From positions 1-64,000 of the forward strand of contig CAKJXZ020000014.1 of the NCBI GenBank assembly GCA_918234285.1: a stretch of DNA of 64,000 nt, in the 5' to 3' direction. Position numbers and translations under genes: made by a program. Numbering within the stretch: position 1 is the stretch's first letter; every line of letters starts with the position of its first letter. The DNA is from Pseudomonadota bacterium. GTDB lineage: Bacteria; Pseudomonadota; Alphaproteobacteria; RF32; CAG-239. The notes beneath the pieces were generated by a model. That model did no database searches. It was given only the letters and a program-made list of their open reading frames with translations, and had not been told where the DNA came from. This document shows positions 34,856 through 45,262 of this stretch, piece after piece.

Positions 34856-34867
34856 GGAGTGCGTAAC

Positions 34868-37800
34868 ATGGATAATTATAAATTATGGAAAAAATTAAAA
34901 GATCAGGCGGCAAAACAAGGGTATGTCGATTATATCGGCTTTCTGCATCTTGATACCGACTTTATTAATGAAAAATTGCCGAAAGATGCGCAGATGTTGG
35001 AGGTAGTTAAGAAAACTGTCGATATTGCCACCTATGATGATACGGAAGAAGGTGTTGATGAATGCCACTTATTAAGTATGGTAGAAATTGCCAAGAAATT
35101 TTGCAATGCCGAGGAAATTTTTAACGAATCGTTGCAAAAAGACGGCGGTAAAAATTTGGAAAAACAGTTGCGCCGTGGGGCAAAAGCACAAGGCGGCTCT
35201 TCCGGTTTTTTATACGATATGATGTACTATATAGGAGATAATCCGTTTTTTGATAAGGTATTGGCGGAGAATCCGGATATAGTCGAAGGTTTGAAAAAGT
35301 ATTTTGATGTAACCATGAGCGGGTTGACGGGTGATAAAAAATTAGATGACGAGCTGGAAGAAGATTATATTAGTTCGGTTATCAAGATTGCCGACAGCGG
35401 AAAATTGGCGCCGTATTTTGACGCATATGCGATAATGAACGCTACAATGGAATTAAACGAAAAAGAGAAGTTTTTGCGTCGTATGCAAAATTCAGCCGCT
35501 AGACATGACGGAAAGTTGACGCCGGGAATACTTAAAAAACGTATAGATGAAATTTTGAAAGCATTGCCGGAGCATCCGGAGATTCTGCCGATAATTGAAA
35601 AGAGCTTTGTTTTGGACAGTAAGGAGAAGCGTAGAGAAAGATACAAATACACCGACGACGATTCTGCATATGAGTATGTAAATGAATCATATGAAGCAGA
35701 TGAAACAGCGCTCGCAACAATTTGGGAACGCGGGTTGCTGAATGAGTTCTTCAACGTTGAAAAAGCGTTGGAACACGGCAAACTCGGCGGCAAAGAGGGT
35801 TTGGCTTATGATGATAAGGAACGAATTGTCAATTTATATTTGCAGCGCGACGATTTGAACATATATCAGTTGCGAGCCTGTCTGGCAATTAGCCGAAGCG
35901 CGACGGAATGGGCGATTCACGACCATCCGGAAATCAAAGAGCGTGTCAATAAAATGCTGGAAGGTGCTCAATCGTATAAGTTGTTGCAGAGCTTTGCCGA
36001 CGATGCTACCCTGAATAAGTTTTTTGATATGAAAGAAAGATTCGAGCGCTCGGCCGAGGCGGTGCAACAGCTGAGCGGCAAGGAAGTATATACGATTTTT
36101 ACCACGCCGGAAAGCGAAATTCCGGAAGCGGCGGAGATGAATCGGCAATACCGGATAATTAAAAAATATCTCGAACAAACCAAGGATTTGAGTAATTACA
36201 GTTTTAATGACGATTTGTGTTACACCAGTTTTCGTAAAGACGAACGTTGGGTCGAAGACGGCGGGCTGAACGAGCTTTTGCAAGATGCCGGCACCTTTAA
36301 GGGAGCGCCGGAAATAACGCAAATGGTCGATGAATGTATCGGTCGGATTTTCGCTCACTATATCTATGATACTCAGGGCAGAAAATCGCGGTTTAACTAT
36401 ATAAGTACGTGCGGAATTGATGAGTTTGCCAAGAACATGAAAGAAGAAGTAACAGCCGACCCGGATTCGCCTAAAGCGCAATTTTATTTGAAGTATGCCT
36501 CGATAGTATTGGACCAGTACACTTCGTTCGACCGTACGTATATTGAGACGGCTGCGGTTTTGCTGCCGGAAATGGCAGAAAGAGGTCGGTTTGACGTTTG
36601 CAAACAAATCTTTATGGGGATGAAACAGGCGGACGGATATTACAGCGGTGCCAACACCTGGTGTTTGGAAAATATGCAAAAAGTGCTGTCGTCCGCGGAA
36701 ACCGAAAAGCCGCTGTTTAAGTTTTATTTGCAAAATGCCAAAGAATTTTGTTCGACAATCGACCAATATTTGGAATTTGCCGCGGTACTCGTCGGCAAAG
36801 ATATGAATGCGCATCCGGAAATCACCGCTCAATTGGGCAAGGAAATCGGCGAGATGTATAAAGAAATGACGCCGGAAAATCCGCAAAAATGTGCCGATAA
36901 ACTGGCGCGTATTTATCAATATTATCCGGCGCCGGAATTTGCCGAGATTATTGCCGAGGACAGCAAACCTTTGGAACTGAAGGAAGAAAATTTGTGCACG
37001 TACTACACCAATTGGATATGTACCGGTCAGCAGAATTTTTCGGACGCGGTGGAACGTATCCTGGCCAGACAGGGAAAGTTTGTTTATGATCCGCAGGACG
37101 GTATTGATTATAAGCCGTTGTTGGAGCGGATTAAGCAGTCCGATATTAAGGAAATAGTAGTGCGTAAGCTGTTGCCGTCGCAAGATACCGATTTTGCCCT
37201 GAGCGGTTATAAAAAGCTGGAAAAGATAAATTTCGGTGATTGCGTGGGTGTAATCAATGCCGAGGCGCTGTTTGATAATCCATCCTTGAAGATAATTGAA
37301 AAAGAATACGACGGGAAGATTACCGTTAATAATCTGGAAAAGCTGTTTGGTGATGCTTTGCCGAGTTTGGAGGAGTTCAAACTGCGGCCGACGGTTATAC
37401 CGGAGCAGGAAGAAGCATTATATAATCTTTTGATGCAGCAAAAACCGGAGAGCTTGCACACGTTATGTTATGACTTTGCTAAAGAAAAAGCCATGAATCT
37501 GATGTACAAAAATATACTGTTGGTGGTGAACAGCCAAAATATGGATACCTATCGTGATTCTCTGATATCGCGCAACGAGCAGTTTATCAGCTTCCATAAA
37601 GGTGAGAGGTCGTTGGAGCAACGCTATGTACTGGATTACGCGATTAGTGACAAAAGATTGGTCGAAGCTTTGTCTGTCATACCGCCGGAAAAACGGCCGA
37701 CGTTGCAACAGATGGAGGAAACGTTTGACTCCGAAAATCCGAACAAACTGCATGAGCGTATCAAAGAGAGTTACGGCGAAGACCGGTATCAGGAGGTTAT

Positions 37801-38218
37801 ACAACAAGTGAGGAATTTGACGGCCGGCAATGAAGTTAAATTGAGTCTTGATTTGCAACTGGCTTGTCGCAACCACGTGTTCATCGAACATCTGCGGGAG
37901 CTGCCGGCGGAGAAGCGGCCGAAGCTTTCCGAACTGTTTGCAGCCGTTAACTCGCAAATTATCAATGGTACTATTGCCGATAATTTGCTCGGAGAAGACG
38001 GGAAGGCCAACCGAGAAACCTGGCAGCGAATCATTGATATATTGAAGCCGAGCGACGAAGAAATCATTAATACGACCAAGATGAAAAAATGTTCCGCAGA
38101 AATGAAGGAAATACTTGACAGTGTGCGTACGTTGCGCAAAGATCTCAAAGAGATGGTCGTAAAAGAAAAGCGACGTTCCGCTTTCGAAAGTTGGAAGAAA
38201 AACAATACAAAAGATTAG
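34868..38218 (+). CDS. Giant orphan helical protein with late LRR-like segment (paralogue B)
   Basis: About 1116 aa from ATG 34868 with AAGGAG SD; KKLEKINF, PSLKIIE and PSLEEFKL LRR-like strands. Confidence 0.8.
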   Translation: MDNYKLWKKLKDQAAKQGYVDYIGFLHLDTDFINEKLPKDAQMLEVVKKTVDIATYDDTEEGVDECHLLSMVEIAKKFCNAEEIFNESLQKDGGKNLEKQLRRGAKAQGGSSGFLYDMMYYIGDNPFFDKVLAENPDIVEGLKKYFDVTMSGLTGDKKLDDELEEDYISSVIKIADSGKLAPYFDAYAIMNATMELNEKEKFLRRMQNSAARHDGKLTPGILKKRIDEILKALPEHPEILPIIEKSFVLDSKEKRRERYKYTDDDSAYEYVNESYEADETALATIWERGLLNEFFNVEKALEHGKLGGKEGLAYDDKERIVNLYLQRDDLNIYQLRACLAISRSATEWAIHDHPEIKERVNKMLEGAQSYKLLQSFADDATLNKFFDMKERFERSAEAVQQLSGKEVYTIFTTPESEIPEAAEMNRQYRIIKKYLEQTKDLSNYSFNDDLCYTSFRKDERWVEDGGLNELLQDAGTFKGAPEITQMVDECIGRIFAHYIYDTQGRKSRFNYISTCGIDEFAKNMKEEVTADPDSPKAQFYLKYASIVLDQYTSFDRTYIETAAVLLPEMAERGRFDVCKQIFMGMKQADGYYSGANTWCLENMQKVLSSAETEKPLFKFYLQNAKEFCSTIDQYLEFAAVLVGKDMNAHPEITAQLGKEIGEMYKEMTPENPQKCADKLARIYQYYPAPEFAEIIAEDSKPLELKEENLCTYYTNWICTGQQNFSDAVERILARQGKFVYDPQDGIDYKPLLERIKQSDIKEIVVRKLLPSQDTDFALSGYKKLEKINFGDCVGVINAEALFDNPSLKIIEKEYDGKITVNNLEKLFGDALPSLEEFKLRPTVIPEQEEALYNLLMQQKPESLHTLCYDFAKEKAMNLMYKNILLVVNSQNMDTYRDSLISRNEQFISFHKGERSLEQRYVLDYAISDKRLVEALSVIPPEKRPTLQQMEETFDSENPNKLHERIKESYGEDRYQEVIQQVRNLTAGNEVKLSLDLQLACRNHVFIEHLRELPAEKRPKLSELFAAVNSQIINGTIADNLLGEDGKANRETWQRIIDILKPSDEEIINTTKMKKCSAEMKEILDSVRTLRKDLKEMVVKEKRRSAFESWKKNNTKD

Positions 38219-38240: not shown

Positions 38241-39353
38241 ATGGATTTGAGAGTATATTATAACAGTTACGGGCAAAGGGTGCCTTTGGGAGTTTTATCT
38301 GACCGTGATGAGAGATATATTTTTGAGTACGATGCCGGGTTCGAATACAGAGAAATCGATGTGTGTCCGTTGTTTCCGTCAGCCGAGGTGCTAAAGATAA
38401 AAGGCACTAGAAATATGTTGCCGTGTTTGTTTTGGGACTTTTTGCCGTCGGGGTTTAATGCCGAAGTTTTGTATAAATTGAGTTCAGCGACAATTCCGCT
38501 TTTGAAACAGCTGGCAATGCACGGCCGACGCGGTGTCGGCGCATTGGAGTTTGAGCCGGAACTGGCTTATAATTACGAAAAAATACCGGTTGATTTGGAT
38601 ATGATGGAAAGCGATATCCGTTATGAAAACAATTTGAGCCGGCAGTTTCGTTTGTCCGCAGGTATTGCCGGGCATACGCCGAAAGTCGCGGTCAGAGTTT
38701 CAAAGGATAAGCAACAAATTTATGAAGATACCGACGAAGAAAATTTTGCCGATTGGATAATAAAATTGCCGTCGTCGCGGAAAAATCCGCTGGACGGGGT
38801 GGCCGAGTATGTTTATAATAAAATGGCAAAAAAGGCCGGTATTACCGTGCCGCAGTTTCATCTGTTTGATTCAAAAGCGGCGGCCGGATATTTCGGCAGC
38901 AAGCGTTTTGACTATCAAAACGGCGTAAAGCGCCATGTTCTTTCCATCGGCTCGCTGATGAACAAAAACTATTTGTTTGAAAGAATTTACCTCGGTTATT
39001 ATACGGATATTGTTAAAAAAATCGCGCCGGAAGAAATAGAAAAATTGCTGAGATTACTGATATTTGATTTGAAGACCGGCAATGAAGATATTCGCGGCAG
39101 GGGGATTTCCATGATTTTGACCGAAGAAAATAAGTGGATTTTGGCGCCGGCTTATGGTTTGGTGCCGTTCTCTTTGGAAAATGATTATACCCCAAAAATG
39201 CTGAAGAAAGATTACGAAAAAGATGCCGTCGATGCGCTTATTTATGATTTGTGCGAAGCGGCGGAATTTGACTTTGGTGCAACCGCCGAAATGATTGTAC
39301 AGGTTGAGGACGCGGTGGCCAGTTATTCTCGTCTGAGTTTGGAACTTAAATAA
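38241..39353 (+). CDS. HipA-family kinase-like protein, probably catalytically degenerate
   Basis: N-terminal coupled domain (YIFEYD, DFLPSGF, GVGALEFEP), IAGHTPK, WIIKLP, SKRFD, GNED, LAPAYG. Confidence 0.8.
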   Translation: MDLRVYYNSYGQRVPLGVLSDRDERYIFEYDAGFEYREIDVCPLFPSAEVLKIKGTRNMLPCLFWDFLPSGFNAEVLYKLSSATIPLLKQLAMHGRRGVGALEFEPELAYNYEKIPVDLDMMESDIRYENNLSRQFRLSAGIAGHTPKVAVRVSKDKQQIYEDTDEENFADWIIKLPSSRKNPLDGVAEYVYNKMAKKAGITVPQFHLFDSKAAAGYFGSKRFDYQNGVKRHVLSIGSLMNKNYLFERIYLGYYTDIVKKIAPEEIEKLLRLLIFDLKTGNEDIRGRGISMILTEENKWILAPAYGLVPFSLENDYTPKMLKKDYEKDAVDALIYDLCEAAEFDFGATAEMIVQVEDAVASYSRLSLELK

Positions 39354-39422: not shown

Positions 39423-39450
39423 TTGACATTTTTATTTTTGGAATTATCGT
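39423..39450 (+). promoter_or_regulatory. Promoter of the NAD salvage operon
   Basis: TTGACA-N16-TATCGT; the predicted start near 39456 coincides with the base of the leader hairpin. Confidence 0.6.
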
Positions 39451-39455
39451 AGAAT

Positions 39456-39569
39456 TGTTCTCGGTGCTTGCAGGGCTTATAGGCAGAGAACATTATAAAA
39501 CCGAGCCGGTTTAATGAGATGAAAGTATTTTTATTTTGTTAGCGGCTCCTGTTTAAAGGAGTTTTTTTT
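39456..39569 (+). promoter_or_regulatory. Candidate riboswitch/cis-regulatory RNA, copy 1
   Basis: Stem tgttctc/gagaaca, 2-nt bulge, stem tgcttg/taggca, loop cagggctta; hairpin aaacc-gagcc-ggttt; gagccg/cggctc competes with the SD-sequestering ggctcct/aggagtt plus U-run. Confidence 0.7.
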
Positions 39570-40112
39570 ATGAGTAAATATAAGTATAAACACGGTTTTT
39601 GCATTATGCGTGCCCAGCCGTTTCATATCGGGCACCAAAAAATCATTGATCAGATGTTGAAAGAATGTGAGCGCGTAACGGTGGCTCTGGGGTCGATTCA
39701 GGAACAAGGGACGGCGCGTAACCCGCTCAATTATACTACCCGCAAGAAAATGATTCAGAATATTTATCGCGACAAGCCGGAATACGAGCGGCTCAAAATC
39801 ATCGGGCTGTTTGATATCAATAATCCGGCAGAGTGGGGAGATTTTGTGGTTGATTTCTTGAAAGAAAGTTTTCCGGATTTACCGTTGCCTGAGGCCTATT
39901 ATGCCGGTTCGGAATATGACGCGCACTGGTTTAAAGACCATTTCAAACATATTGTGTTGGTAGATCGTACCGATCCGAATTTTCCGTTTGTGACAGGGAC
40001 TATGGTGCGTGATATGATTAAATTCGGCGACAAGCGTTGGAAAAATTTTGTGGCGCCGGAAAATCATCATCTGGTGGAAGAACATTTTAATAAGAAAAAA
40101 GGTATTGTTTAA
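39570..40112 (+). CDS. NadM-like nicotinamide/nicotinate mononucleotide adenylyltransferase
   Basis: MRAQPFHIGH (HxGH), LGS, RNPLNYTTRKKMI, TGTMVR; NAD operon context. Confidence 0.82.
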   Translation: MSKYKYKHGFCIMRAQPFHIGHQKIIDQMLKECERVTVALGSIQEQGTARNPLNYTTRKKMIQNIYRDKPEYERLKIIGLFDINNPAEWGDFVVDFLKESFPDLPLPEAYYAGSEYDAHWFKDHFKHIVLVDRTDPNFPFVTGTMVRDMIKFGDKRWKNFVAPENHHLVEEHFNKKKGIV

Positions 40113-40119
40113 TTTTACG

Positions 40120-40190
40120 CGTCTGCGTCTTGCGCAGGGCTTATGCAAGACAGACGATTTTAACCTGATAAGCCTGAAGGGAAGGAAATT
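40120..40190 (+). promoter_or_regulatory. Candidate riboswitch/cis-regulatory RNA, copy 2
   Basis: Stem cgtct/agacg, 2-nt bulge, stem gtcttgcg/tgcaagac, identical loop cagggctta; downstream taagcc complementary to the loop and adjacent to the SD. Confidence 0.7.
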
Positions 40191-40814
40191 ATGACTCAAA
40201 ATATTTTAATGCGGATAGATTTTCAAAATGACTTCGTGCATCCGCACGGTGCGCTCAGTCTGAATGCACCGGAACTTATCACAAAACATCAAAAATTTGC
40301 CGATGCGCTGTTTGACGGCAGTTTTGATAAAATTATCGATACGTATGACACGCATTTTGCCGAAACTTACGGCAATACCTCGGAATCCGACAGCTTTCCG
40401 CCGCATTGTGTGCAAGGCACTTGGGGGTGGCAGCAGGCGGCGCCGTTTAAGCCGGATTTGGCGGTTGAAAAAATGTATAAATCCACCACCAATATTTGGA
40501 ACGAGTTGAAACAATATCGCACTTTGCAACAGGATTGGGGTGATACCAACGTTTATTTGTGCGGCGTTTTGAGCGACGTGTGTGTTAAACAGGCCTTAAA
40601 CGGGCTGTTAAAACACGGTGCTAAAGTGGTGATTATCGAGGATTTATGCCTGGGAGCCAATCAGCAAATCGGCGATATTTTGCAAAAAGAAGCTTATCAG
40701 CCGTTTATTGAGGCAGGTTATCTGCGACGGATTACGACAGCGCAATTTTTCCGCAAAGAATTGCATAATAAAAAAGTTCAACACAATTTAGTTCATAAAA
40801 GTTTAGGAGAATAG
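40191..40814 (+). CDS. pncA: Nicotinamidase (isochorismatase family)
   Basis: IDFQNDF..G.L, DTH, FPPHCVQGTWG, K, GVLSDVCV. Confidence 0.85.
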   Translation: MTQNILMRIDFQNDFVHPHGALSLNAPELITKHQKFADALFDGSFDKIIDTYDTHFAETYGNTSESDSFPPHCVQGTWGWQQAAPFKPDLAVEKMYKSTTNIWNELKQYRTLQQDWGDTNVYLCGVLSDVCVKQALNGLLKHGAKVVIIEDLCLGANQQIGDILQKEAYQPFIEAGYLRRITTAQFFRKELHNKKVQHNLVHKSLGE

Positions 40815-40816
40815 CC

Positions 40817-42310
40817 ATGACAAATACCAGACCGAATATTTTGGAAAACGGAACGCCGTTGTTTTGCGATTTATACCATTTAACCATGGCGCAAGCGTGG
40901 TTTTTGGACGGTAAAGCCGAGGAAATCAAAACTTCGGAAGCGTTCTTTCGGAAAAATCCGTTCGGCGGCAGTTATTTGATGTGTGCCGGCTTGGGTGAAT
41001 TTGTGCAGTGGCTGGAAAATTGGCATTTTACCAAAGATGACATTGATTATCTGCGTCAAGAAAAGAATGCCGACGGCAGTGCGCGTTTTGATAAGCGTTT
41101 TCTGGAATTTATCAAAGACAAAAAACTGCAAATCAGTATTAATGCGGTGCCGGAAGGAGAATTGGTGTTTCCGAACGAGCCGGTGTATTCCGTAACCGGT
41201 CCGACTTGGCAGGTTGATTTGGTGGAAGCGGCCTTGTTAAACGCGTTTAATTCGCAGAGTTTGGTGGCAACCAAGGCATCGCGTATGATATATGCTGCTT
41301 CTTTGGACGGCAAACAACGTCCGCTTTTGGAATTCGGCTTAAGACGCGGGCATGAGATGGGCGGATTTTCCGAAACCAGAGCGGCATTTATCGGCGGTGC
41401 AACCGGCACTTCCAACACCGCGGCGGCCAAACATTACGGGATTCCGGATTCCGGTACTATGGCGCACTCTTTTGTGATGAGCTACGAAAAAGAGGTTGAT
41501 GCCTTTAAGGCCTTTATGCGCGGCAATCCGGGGAATACCACGCTATTGGTCGATACTTATGATACACGCGAGGGAATTAAGCATGCCATTGAAGCAACTA
41601 AGGAAGTCGGTTTGCCGCTGATGGGAATGCGGGTGGATTCCGGCGATTTGGCATATTGGGCGAAGGAAGCGCGCAAAATGATTGATGCCGAGGGCGATAA
41701 TCCGTTGTTTGCCAATGTAAAAATGGTGGCTTCCAATGACTTGGATGAACACCTGATAGAAAATCTGCTGATAGTGCAAAAGGCGCCGTATGATGTTTTG
41801 GCGGCGGGTACCAAGTTGGTTACGGCTTATGATACTCCGGCATTGGGCGGAGTGTTTAAAACCAAGCAATATATGGGACGTCCGTGTATCAAAATCGCCG
41901 AAGGAAAAACTACCATTCCGGGGGCGACCAATGTGGTGCGAATCATACGCAAAGATAAGTTTGAGGGCGATATTATCTGCGGTGCGGCCGATACGGATTT
42001 GGTGCAAGACGGCAAGCTGAGCCGCAATATTACTTCGTATACGCTTGACAGCCTGAACGGATTGAAACGCAATTTTAAAGCCGGCGAGCAGGCTTATTTG
42101 CTGTTGCAACCGGTGGTGCAAAACGGCAAGGTAATCAATCCGCCGGAGTTGAATTTGCAAAAACTGCAGCAACGCGGCAAGGCTAATTTGGCACGGCTTG
42201 ACGAAGCATACAAGCGTTTGGCCAATCCGCATATTTACGGCGTGGGATTGGAAACAAACCTGTATAATACGCGGCAAAGTCTGATTATGAATGCCGGGAA
42301 GGGGAGATAG
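40817..42310 (+). CDS. pncB: Nicotinate phosphoribosyltransferase
   Basis: DLYHLTM, FFRKNPF, EFGLRR, GTMAHS, LVDTYD, RVDSGDL, ASNDLDE. Confidence 0.95.
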   Translation: MTNTRPNILENGTPLFCDLYHLTMAQAWFLDGKAEEIKTSEAFFRKNPFGGSYLMCAGLGEFVQWLENWHFTKDDIDYLRQEKNADGSARFDKRFLEFIKDKKLQISINAVPEGELVFPNEPVYSVTGPTWQVDLVEAALLNAFNSQSLVATKASRMIYAASLDGKQRPLLEFGLRRGHEMGGFSETRAAFIGGATGTSNTAAAKHYGIPDSGTMAHSFVMSYEKEVDAFKAFMRGNPGNTTLLVDTYDTREGIKHAIEATKEVGLPLMGMRVDSGDLAYWAKEARKMIDAEGDNPLFANVKMVASNDLDEHLIENLLIVQKAPYDVLAAGTKLVTAYDTPALGGVFKTKQYMGRPCIKIAEGKTTIPGATNVVRIIRKDKFEGDIICGAADTDLVQDGKLSRNITSYTLDSLNGLKRNFKAGEQAYLLLQPVVQNGKVINPPELNLQKLQQRGKANLARLDEAYKRLANPHIYGVGLETNLYNTRQSLIMNAGKGR

Positions 42311-43093
42311 ATGATGGAAAAACTTTGGCATAAATTGCAAAGCGGCTTGCGGCAATATTGCGCCGAAAACGGTTTTAATAAAGCAATTCTCGGACTTTCC
42401 GGCGGGCTGGATTCGGCGCTGACCGCGGTGTTGGCGGCAGATGTTTTAGGTGGCGAAAATGTTACGGCGATTATGATGAAAACTCAATATACATCTGATT
42501 TGAGCCTGCAAATTGCCCGCGAAACGGCTAAGCTCAACCATCTTGATTATCATGAGTTGGATATTGAACCGTTGGTGCAGGCGGAAATCGGCTTTTTAGC
42601 GCAGGCTTTTAAGGCTCCCGTGCGCGGTATTACGGCAGAAAATTTGCAGGCACGCATTCGCGGACAGCTGTTGATGGCGTGGTCCAACCAAAACGGCGGG
42701 TTGGTGTTGGCTTGCGGCAACAAATCGGAGGCATTGACCGGATATTGTACGCTCTATGGTGACACTTGCGGCGGTTTAATGCCGATAGGTAACGTATATA
42801 AAACCACGATTTTCGCATTGGCCAAATGGCGCAATACTTTAGGATATGCTTTGCCGGAAGCGGTAATCACGCGGGCACCGTCGGCAGAACTTGCGGCAGG
42901 GCAAAAAGATGAAGACTCGTTGCCGCCATACGCTGTTTTGGACGAAGTATTGAAATTGCTTTATGATGAGCAAAAGTCAGTAGCAGAAGCGGTTGCTGCC
43001 GGATTTAATACGGCTTTGGTCGAGCGGGTGGAAAAATTAATTCGCCGCTCGGAGTTCAAACGCAAACAGATGGCGACTGCTCTGGCGGTATAA
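42311..43093 (+). CDS. nadE: NAD+ synthetase (single domain, no glutaminase domain)
   Basis: LGLSGGLDS, ENLQARIRG, GNKSE, GYCTLYGD, APSAEL..GQKDEDSLPPY. Confidence 0.95.
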   Translation: MMEKLWHKLQSGLRQYCAENGFNKAILGLSGGLDSALTAVLAADVLGGENVTAIMMKTQYTSDLSLQIARETAKLNHLDYHELDIEPLVQAEIGFLAQAFKAPVRGITAENLQARIRGQLLMAWSNQNGGLVLACGNKSEALTGYCTLYGDTCGGLMPIGNVYKTTIFALAKWRNTLGYALPEAVITRAPSAELAAGQKDEDSLPPYAVLDEVLKLLYDEQKSVAEAVAAGFNTALVERVEKLIRRSEFKRKQMATALAV

Positions 43094-43222: not shown

Positions 43223-45262
43223 ATGACCGAAGAAAAAACGCAAAGAGAACGCAATCAGGATATCTTGGAGGCATACGACGGGTCGGACATTATGCATCCG
43301 CAGGTTATATTGCGCAAAGTTAAGCAAGTTGACGGCAATATTCTTGATGATGAATTGTTCGGCGTGAAGCTCAGTTGCTATCGCGCATATGATGCCTATG
43401 AAATAATGGAAAAGTTGCCGGAGAAATTTCAATGGGCAGGCTGGAGTATTGCCGATTTTATGGCTGAATATACAAAGCTGCTGGAGCACCCGACGGAGAG
43501 AATACAGTTGGAAGCGTTGGCAAAAAGCGGTTGCCGGATTTTTATTGAGGACAAATGCTCCTCAATGGGAGGAAACAGTAAAAGTGCCGGATACAGAGGA
43601 CAATCTTCACATATTGCGGGAAAACCGGCCATTAAATTGGTGGCATACATATTTGGCGACAGAACTTTTTTGCACGAAGCCATACATAATTCGGATTTGC
43701 GTTTGGGCTGGAATTATTTCACTAAGCAAAAGATTTATCAGGCGGCGATTATGATGCTTGACGCGCAAAAAATTCAAGCTTCTCACGGCTATCAAAGCGT
43801 AAAAAAACTGCGCCAGATTAACGAGGTTTATCAGGACGGCGAAATATATACCGAGGGCTTGGCCTGGATTGGCTCCATGTCGATGGAAGAATTGGCTCAT
43901 GAAAAAAATCATATCGGCAAAAACCTGAAAGTTCTGCATTCTCTGTATACCGAGGCATTGTTAAAAGAGCAAGGGGCGGTGTTGGATTGTTTTCGCTTTT
44001 GGCAACCTTCGGCGCATATAGAAAAATTGTTGGAAACTTATAATGCCAACGGCCAGAAAATCGGCAAAGAGCGCGATAAAATATTAAAACAACAGAAGCA
44101 TCTCTGGGACGAAATGATGAAATTCCGTAAGGAAATAAATAAACTCAAAGTAAACGGGCTGGAGAGCAAAACATTGTCGCTTGGGGGCGGTTCGTATTAT
44201 TGCCAAACCGGCGGCGTTAAATCGCTGTTTCCGTTGTATATGGCGCAAGACAAGGCCGACAAAGCATTTCAACAAATTGAAGATGATGAAAAATTGTCGT
44301 CGAACACCAAAAAGCGGAGGCATACCGCAGTATTAAAAGCGTTGTTTAAGGAAATTAAGGCGGGAGATTTGAACGTTCCTTCATTGTTTGCGGAAAAGTT
44401 TTTGACCTGCGAGGAATATCTGTATAAAATGCGTAAATATTATCCGTCTTATGATTATAATGATATGCTTTTCGATTTGTCGCCGAAGGAAAACGAGCCG
44501 AAAGGAATCGCCGGGCGTAAGCGGCTTTATGATAATTTGGAGGCTCAGGCCAATATTTTGTATATGCAGATGCATTCCGTTTATACGCTCAAGGAGTGTG
44601 CGTTGGCATATTTATATAAGGCATATCACGAATCCGTGCGTTCCGGCGATGAAATGGTCAAAATGGCAATGATGAACGATATGAGTTCGCTTGAACATAA
44701 AAGAGAGTATGTAAAAGACTTGATAACCAGAGCGCGGGAAAAAACGTCGCGGCGTATGACAGGGCGTTATGCGGCAGAAGCCTTTATGGGCATGGAATAT
44801 TTGTTGCAGAAATATAATCTGCCGCGAAATACGCACGGGGTGTTGGAAGCGGATGATTTGCGGAATTTTCACACTTCGGAGAAAGTCGTTGATGATTTAA
44901 AATGGCTTAAGACCGAAGAAAATGCCGACGGCTTGCCGCTTGAAATGTATAAGTGTTTTGATGCGGGAATTGTCAGCGATTATTGCTCGCGACCGGCAAG
45001 CGCTTTCAATGCTAAAAGCGAGGATTACTTACCGAATAACTATAGAAATCAGGACTCACAAAAGGTTGCCTATACTCGCGCCTTGTATGAATTTTTGGCA
45101 CTGCGACACGCTTATCAGGCCAAAACGCATTGCAAGAAATTTCCGCAACATTTGCAGTTGCAGGCGTTTATGCCGAACTCCGATTATTACAGACAAATCA
45201 GATCTTTAGCGGCACCTCAGGTAATTTCTGCAAAAGATTCTAAAGATAACGGCGGAAAGTGA
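43223..45262 (+). CDS. Orphan protein with HExxH zinc-metallopeptidase-like motif
   Basis: TFLHEAIHNSD with a downstream EIYTEGLA helix; 679 aa. Confidence 0.65.
   Translation: MTEEKTQRERNQDILEAYDGSDIMHPQVILRKVKQVDGNILDDELFGVKLSCYRAYDAYEIMEKLPEKFQWAGWSIADFMAEYTKLLEHPTERIQLEALAKSGCRIFIEDKCSSMGGNSKSAGYRGQSSHIAGKPAIKLVAYIFGDRTFLHEAIHNSDLRLGWNYFTKQKIYQAAIMMLDAQKIQASHGYQSVKKLRQINEVYQDGEIYTEGLAWIGSMSMEELAHEKNHIGKNLKVLHSLYTEALLKEQGAVLDCFRFWQPSAHIEKLLETYNANGQKIGKERDKILKQQKHLWDEMMKFRKEINKLKVNGLESKTLSLGGGSYYCQTGGVKSLFPLYMAQDKADKAFQQIEDDEKLSSNTKKRRHTAVLKALFKEIKAGDLNVPSLFAEKFLTCEEYLYKMRKYYPSYDYNDMLFDLSPKENEPKGIAGRKRLYDNLEAQANILYMQMHSVYTLKECALAYLYKAYHESVRSGDEMVKMAMMNDMSSLEHKREYVKDLITRAREKTSRRMTGRYAAEAFMGMEYLLQKYNLPRNTHGVLEADDLRNFHTSEKVVDDLKWLKTEENADGLPLEMYKCFDAGIVSDYCSRPASAFNAKSEDYLPNNYRNQDSQKVAYTRALYEFLALRHAYQAKTHCKKFPQHLQLQAFMPNSDYYRQIRSLAAPQVISAKDSKDNGGK

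Follow-up and report, generated by a model that had tools for sequence, protein, structure and literature searches.

A short structured RNA element, probably a cis-acting riboswitch of an undescribed class, occurs twice in a single nicotinamide adenine dinucleotide (NAD) salvage operon of a Pseudomonadota bacterium (Alphaproteobacteria; RF32; CAG-239). The operon lies on a 64,000-nucleotide (nt) stretch of contig CAKJXZ020000014.1 (GenBank assembly GCA_918234285.1, positions 1 to 64,000, forward strand), which was analyzed at its full length and is called the window hereafter. Copy 1 (type A, 39456-39512) precedes a NadM-like adenylyltransferase gene and copy 2 (type B, 40120-40180) precedes pncA, as described in an earlier note on this sequence, all coordinates of which proved correct on rereading the window. 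Comparison with related genomes gives good support to the element as a candidate new class of riboswitch for the control of NAD salvage; small-molecule binding, the identity of the ligand and the direction of the switch are what we infer. The earlier note had named several checks that can be made by computation (a search against known RNA families, the scatter of copies, stem covariation and gene context), and every one of them gave the predicted result.

All features described here are on the forward strand, and both copies follow a common plan: a lower and an upper stem are separated by a bulge of 2 nt on the 5' side, and the upper stem, with a G-U closing pair, carries the identical loop CAGGGCUUA. 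The distance from bulge to loop is 6 bp in type A, compared to 8 bp in type B. In type A, the first hairpin (P1, 39456-39492) comprises the lower stem (39456-39462 with 39486-39492), the bulge GG (39463-39464), the G-U-closed upper stem (39465-39470 with 39480-39485) and the loop (39471-39479). A second hairpin (P2, 39498-39512) follows, in which AAACC (39498-39502) pairs with GGUUU (39508-39512) around the loop GAGCC (39503-39507), complementary to GGCUU (39474-39478) of the P1 loop. In type B, P1 (40120-40156) is built of the lower stem (40120-40124 with 40152-40156), the bulge GC (40125-40126), the G-U-closed upper stem (40127-40134 with 40144-40151) and the loop (40135-40143), while P2 and the expression platform share positions 40163-40186: CCU (40164-40166) pairs with AGG (40178-40180) of the ribosome-binding site (RBS) AGGGAAGGA (40178-40186; ATG at 40191), and the P2 loop UAAGCC (40169-40174) is complementary to GGCUUA (40138-40143) of the P1 loop. 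Both P1 hairpins were recognized by R1, a covariance model of P1 built from 25 gapless sequences (54.8 bits for type A, 53.2 bits for type B), and were reproduced by ViennaRNA with z values of -1.2 to -2.3, little different from shuffled sequences; single-sequence folding as a whole gave z values of -0.5 to -2.3 and was uninformative alone. It is because of the cross-genome comparison, and not of single-sequence folding energy, that the element can be regarded as more than chance. The earlier note had seen in each copy a segment complementary to the loop, preceded by an AU-rich linker and AACC; the complementarity stands, and AACC turned out to be the 5' strand of P2, a helix not described there. 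Since RAGCC thus sits in the P2 loop, its contact with the P1 loop would be of the kissing or pseudoknot type. These features are best explained by a putative sensor of ~57-60 nt, consisting of a 13-bp bulged P1 with the loop N-A-G-G-G-C-U-U-A, an A-rich linker and P2 with an RAGCC loop.

Pairing was evaluated in three alignments: A3 (25 gapless sequences), A7 (57 type-A-like sequences aligned to a model designated R2) and A8 (54 type-B sequences, aligned with MAFFT). MAFFT alignments of the two copies alone, or of types A and B jointly, misaligned the 3' parts and were used only for choosing gapless stretches, and alignment A4 (MAFFT, type A together with all five variants) was left out of the counts because two variants with 7-nt loops were misaligned. 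In A3, 97.1% of the P1 cells were paired, compared to 35-51% with a slid partner, both sides had changed in 10 of 11 pairs, and the score was reached by none of 500 shuffles. The lower stem of P1 was 100% paired in A7 (5/5 pairs changed on both sides) and the upper one 98.8% (5/6), P2 was 86.3% paired (4/5 pairs changed on both sides), and P1 in A8 was 97.3% paired (9/13). Overall, 96-98% of the cells were paired in A3, A7 and A8 vs. 27-53% with slid partners, with 10-14 pairs changed on both sides. The strands of type-A P2 take forms as different as AAAC(C/U)/(G/A)GUUU, GAAC/GUUC, CGGC/GCCG and GAG/CUC. The predicted P1 and P2 helices are thus strongly supported, and the pairing that the earlier note had found preserved between two stems of different sequence is likewise kept in P1 throughout the three alignments. 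What emerges is a conserved and apparently structured RNA with covarying helices, as expected of a riboswitch. Many of the changes yield G-U pairs, which make sense in RNA only. A DNA operator, i.e., an inverted repeat bound by NiaR, NrtR, NadR or another transcription factor, might come to mind, as P1 is an inverted repeat in DNA and the predicted transcription start falls within type A; in an operator, though, the sequence itself should be conserved, whereas here the arms vary and yet stay complementary (often via G-U), the conserved part is the loop and not the arms, and type B lies inside the operon, right at the RBS. We regard such an operator as very improbable.

The contact between the P1 loop and RAGCC is moderately supported, with compensated changes in divergent copies. 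Outside the main family, GGCC faces GGCC in four type-B copies (genomes G244, G619, G666, and G670), GGCUA faces UAGCC in type A of G244, GACUA faces UAGUC in a paralogous locus of G290, and GGCAA faces UUG(G)CC in a paralogous locus of G619. The two paralogous loci belong to variants (L161 in G619:C27 and L162 in G290:C4) whose loop has 7 nt (AGGGCAA or AGGACUA) and whose partner is changed to match; model R2 missed both at E <= 0.1, and their structure was read directly from the sequence. Each precedes a paralogue of the NadM-like gene (48% identical to the window protein), followed by a gene of the F420_ligase family (PF01996) encoding 400-420 amino acids (aa), and the paralogue at L162 has one in-frame TAA.

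Each type of the element is joined to a different expression platform. In type A, a predicted sigma-70 promoter (TTGACA-16 nt-TATCGT, 39423-39450; 10 of 12 consensus positions in a promoter scan) places the transcription start at ~39456-39458, the first bases of P1, in agreement with the earlier suggestion that copy 1 begins at the start of the transcript; the motif TTGAC(A/T), 16-17 nt, TAnnnT was seen in the same register in all 17 type-A upstream regions inspected by eye (no script count). Further downstream, the same scan found a terminator-like hairpin (GGCUCCU/AGGAGUU, 39544-39563) which holds the RBS AGGAG (39557-39561) and whose U run (39562-39569) abuts the ATG at 39570. A GGCUCC...GGAG hairpin with a U run directly before the ATG was present in 52 of the 53 unique type-A copies, despite a variable spacer of up to 177 nt. 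GAGCC could pair with either of two partners, the P1 loop or GGCUC in the terminator arm; in the window CGGCUC (39543-39548) is the predicted antiterminator partner of GAGCCG (39503-39508). The base after GAGCC and the one preceding GGCUC covary, and a pair extending the helix can form between them in 44 of 52 copies (G-C in 35, A-U in 8, G-U in 1; unpaired in 8). When six type-A leaders were folded, the minimum-energy structure was the antiterminator in five, and with GAGCC blocked the terminator formed instead, which cost 1.2-3.4 kcal/mol; for the leader of the window, antiterminator and terminator have equal energies (-31.6 and -31.5). The competition between the loop and the terminator arm for GAGCCG, postulated in the earlier note for copy 1, is therefore conserved across type-A copies and backed by folding. 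In type B, where the 3' strand of P2 is the RBS itself, the two strands change together: ACCC co-occurs with AGGG in 30/30 copies, while AGGA, without the third G, is paired with ACCU (13 copies) or ACCG (1 copy) and never with ACCC. Sequence and folding together predict mutually exclusive structures coupled to the sensor, the arrangement expected of a riboswitch.

Five type-A leaders (L038, L070, L127, L138, and L114) carry an additional ~90 nt, containing inverted repeats, downstream of P2 and ahead of the terminator. In leaders bearing such an insertion the spacer reaches up to 177 nt, compared to 28-56 nt in most copies, and the GAGCC and GGCUCC partners are kept; the added stretch resembles a minor insertion that the variable spacer can accommodate.

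The operon comprises four genes, which together encode a complete route from nicotinamide through nicotinate and nicotinate mononucleotide (NaMN) to NAD. The first (39570-40112) encodes a NadM-like (archaeal-type) nicotinamide/nicotinate-nucleotide adenylyltransferase of 180 aa, assigned by Pfam CTP_transf_like (3.5e-8) and by NCBIfam nicotinamide mononucleotide (NMN) adenylyltransferase models (1e-14 to 7e-15, all under the curated cut-offs). It is followed by a pncA-like nicotinamidase gene (40191-40814), pncB for nicotinate phosphoribosyltransferase (40817-42310) and nadE for NAD synthase (42311-43093). Type B fills part of the 78-nt spacer before pncA, and pncB and nadE then adjoin without spacing. 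As the genome has no match to the NadA or PnuC families, the four-gene operon is its recognizable route to NAD. The step catalyzed by PncA, nicotinamide to nicotinate, is the reaction through which gut bacteria feed the NAD metabolism of their host. All 53 unique type-A and all 52 unique type-B copies precede the NadM-like gene or pncA, respectively, so that the element holds a consistent cis position before the genes of one pathway, like a riboswitch, and the association with NAD genes anticipated in the earlier note is exclusive to this salvage operon.

These unique copies were obtained from 54 + 54 candidates after removal of three chance matches (L129, L136, and L116). Within the order, represented by 151 genomes (149 of the 150 others belong to one family), R1 matched 62 genomes at E <= 0.01. 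Of these, 49 have two sites, 13 have a single site and none has more; where there are two, they lie 0.66-0.84 kb apart, and two of the single matches are weak (24-26 bits). In a pattern scan of named genomes, for which we estimate ~56 matches by chance in random sequence, 70 loci were found and 45 of them had R1 scores of at least 30 bits. All 45 were titled as uncultured Alphaproteobacteria, proteobacterium or 'Azospirillum' metagenome-assembled genomes, many of them with gut or rumen in the title. The remaining 25 loci, without R1 match, were treated as chance; they include one from Alphaproteobacteria (L080) and, among others, records titled Prevotella, Flavobacterium, Lachnospiraceae, and Woesearchaeota. 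A family-wide pattern scan (126/201 genomes) was not used as a measure of prevalence, because matches to the control pattern were frequent too. At the level of the class, R1 gave only weak matches in a search of one genome per family (151 genomes); those in G290, the one genome contained in its order, and in G283 proved real by gene context, while that in G313 (L072) looks like chance. A protein search of the class found the NadM-like protein in 10 of 401 genomes, and divergent forms of the element stand upstream of its gene in four other alphaproteobacterial families (represented by G283, G290, G244, and G619), with R2 matching 4 of 80 genomes in the family of G619. A sample of 150 other genomes from the phylum gave no match.

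The element could in principle be a dispersed repeat (a repetitive extragenic palindrome or a miniature inverted-repeat element) or a chance resemblance, considering that two similar hairpins stand close together. The copies are not scattered, however: the exact 11-mer GCAGGGCTTAT occurs twice in the 2,005,265-base genome, both times at these copies, one-mismatch matches (17 + 15) are at the level of a control pattern (11 + 15), and at E <= 1 R1 has no match besides the two copies. Never more than two sites per genome among the 62 matching genomes, a fixed position before two specific genes and zero matches in the other 150 genomes of the phylum also speak against a repeat, which we consider the least probable of all explanations and practically negligible.

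PncB was detected in 10 of the 41 genus genomes searched. It was absent from all 15 that had no R1 match and were searched for both, and G135 has both; the element therefore travels with the operon. The salvage operon and both RNA elements are patchy, PncB in the genus as just given and the element in 62/151 genomes of the order, which suggests repeated loss or transfer within small-genome gut Alphaproteobacteria.

We propose that ligand binding would stabilize the contact between the P1 and P2 loops and thereby P2. In type A, this contact would withdraw GAGCC(R) from (Y)GGCUC, so that the terminator burying the RBS could form and the whole operon would be switched off; in type B, the 3' strand of the stabilized P2 is the RBS and translation of pncA would be blocked. 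The folded sensor would hence correspond to the OFF state, in type B through occlusion and in type A through termination as well. For a salvage operon that makes NAD, such OFF control suggests that the ligand is likely an end product, and NAD+ or a late nucleotide such as nicotinate adenine dinucleotide, NMN, or NaMN would be the most likely one. The most specific version of this proposal is a third NAD+ class, structurally unrelated to the known ones ('NAD+-III'): a kissing two-hairpin aptamer of ~60 nt, controlling a Preiss-Handler operon by leader termination and by pncA translation, and confined to uncultured gut and rumen Alphaproteobacteria. We put it forward tentatively, at slightly short of an even chance.

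A ligand other than these, bound by a riboswitch of the same architecture, is rather unlikely. Nicotinate, nicotinamide, phosphoribosyl pyrophosphate, ADP-ribose or an unrelated signal might be considered, as known protein regulators of NAD genes respond to nicotinate (NiaR) or ADP-ribose (NrtR) and the 7-nt-loop variants before a different operon hint at a specificity that can change within the fold, but the OFF logic fits an end product better and a precursor would be expected to induce salvage. The 7-nt-loop variants themselves may represent a sister subclass with a different ligand, as they would if 'NAD+-III' is true.

Similarly improbable in our view is that the same RNA switch responds to an RNA-binding protein that reports the NAD status, perhaps an enzyme encoded in the operon itself, acting on the P1 loop or on the folded contact in the manner of PyrR or TRAP, known cases of protein-mediated attenuation. 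A conserved hairpin loop and a choice between terminator and antiterminator are equally typical of such systems, and control of a single operon type resembles autoregulatory leaders. On the other hand, RNA-RNA pairing, which covaries in relatives, accounts for the conservation of the loop at least in part, one sensor drives two different platforms, and the neighbors of the operon, a HipA-like kinase gene and open reading frames (ORFs) without family, include no RNA-binding gene. Two further mechanisms were dropped, a leader peptide (no conserved ORF) and a T-box-like mechanism (no specifier-like feature).

Several points weigh against the riboswitch reading and the loop contact on which it depends. 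The contact is 99.3% paired in A7, but both of its strands are invariant within the main family (A7 and A8), i.e., there is no covariation. Some relatives have uncompensated changes: in type A of G706 the loop GGCAAA faces GAGCC, with 3 bp left, and the terminal pair of the contact is lost in type A of G619, type A of G290, and type B of G706. Tested individually against shuffled sequences, loop and partner matched with p values of 0.08-0.9, and only the type B of the window was significant (0.009). A7 was fitted to its own model, which favors the structure of that model, and the aligned sequences are kin, so that the shuffle figures overstate significance. Type-B P2 has just 3 bp. The genomic context amounts to one operon type plus one paralogous operon, far below that of riboswitches preceding several unrelated pathway genes. 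Material from RNA libraries (one pig-gut metatranscriptome run, 4% of words) provided only contigs of relatives, 85-95% alike, and no transcript ends; one such contig of a relative extends upstream of the predicted start.

To our knowledge, only two classes of NAD+ riboswitches have been described, although few coenzymes are as abundant and as ancient as NAD+. The element would share with NAD+-I (the nadA motif) the role of an NAD+ riboswitch over NAD synthesis genes, and it differs in that the corresponding model, RF03013, has no match above its cut-off (37.5) at the locus or anywhere in the genome, where the best score was 16.9 bits on a different contig. Identity with NAD+-I is thereby excluded. 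The earlier note had allowed for a new class, and no Rfam 15 family matched at gathering score in the whole 64-kb window; between 39300 and 40300 there were only six matches, of 9.5-18.4 bits and E of at least 1.5. In the literature within our reach, which excluded most subscription journals and supplementary lists of orphan motifs (e.g., PMC8632094), no description of the motif was found.

According to the available parts of the published descriptions, NAD+-II (the pnuC motif) is found in Streptococcus before pnuC, and its pseudoknot joins the 5' strand of the internal loop between P1 and P1a to the RBS, the apical loop of P1a being variable and dispensable (PMC7749635, PMC10085692). As far as these parts go, our element resembles NAD+-II in being a small aptamer at an NAD-related gene, with a long-range pseudoknot that occludes the RBS (OFF) and an A-rich strand by P1. 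It is unlike NAD+-II, on the same partial basis, in that the apical loop is near-invariant and itself a strand of the pseudoknot, the 5' bulge has only 2 nt, and the element stands before a NadM-like gene and pncA, not pnuC, in gut Alphaproteobacteria. The terminator platform is a further difference, as none is mentioned for NAD+-II in the available text (PMC7749635, PMC10085692). The candidate thus shows neither the NAD+-II topology nor the pnuC association, and the published descriptions, as far as available, appear to set it apart from that class.

In architecture, the element comes closest to two-hairpin aptamers of the kissing type, guanidine-II among them. In guanidine-II (mini-ykkC) the loops of two hairpins pair with each other (ACGR) and the second hairpin holds the RBS, and loop-loop pairing of two hairpins is also known from purine riboswitches; our element differs from both in loop sequences, ligands and genes, and has no Rfam match. 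The H-type pseudoknot aptamers (preQ1-I, SAM-II, and fluoride) are ~50-60 nt long, with a loop that pairs with a 3' segment overlapping the expression platform. The element is of the same size class and its P1 loop would make a comparable contact, but the 3' partner would be part of the loop of another covarying helix, P1 is a long stem with a bulge, and there is no similarity to them in sequence or model.

Judging from the available parts of the reports, the known NAD+ classes are taxonomically narrow, with the nadA motif upstream of nadA in Acidobacteria (PMC6859854) and the pnuC motif in Streptococcus (PMC7749635, PMC10085692), and each reads mainly one half of the molecule (partly in PMC7749635 and PMC10085692). 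A third class, if true, would help to explain how NAD is controlled in bacteria without known protein regulators and would make available a small natural aptamer on which sensors for metabolites of the NAD pathway could be built. It would also mean that lineages known only from metagenome-assembled genomes still conceal riboswitch classes.

A few observations concern the surroundings of the two copies. The operon is flanked by two long ORFs, one of 1119 aa (34859-38218) and one of 679 aa (43223-45262), neither with a Pfam match and the latter also without an NCBIfam match. Inside the 3' part of the NadM-like gene there are a promoter-like site (39990-40018) and a terminator-like hairpin (40023-40041), both of them consensus matches only. 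Directly upstream of the NAD-operon promoter, a gene for a HipA-like kinase (38241-39353) has matches to HipA_C (1.8e-24) and Couple_hipA (6.3e-6).

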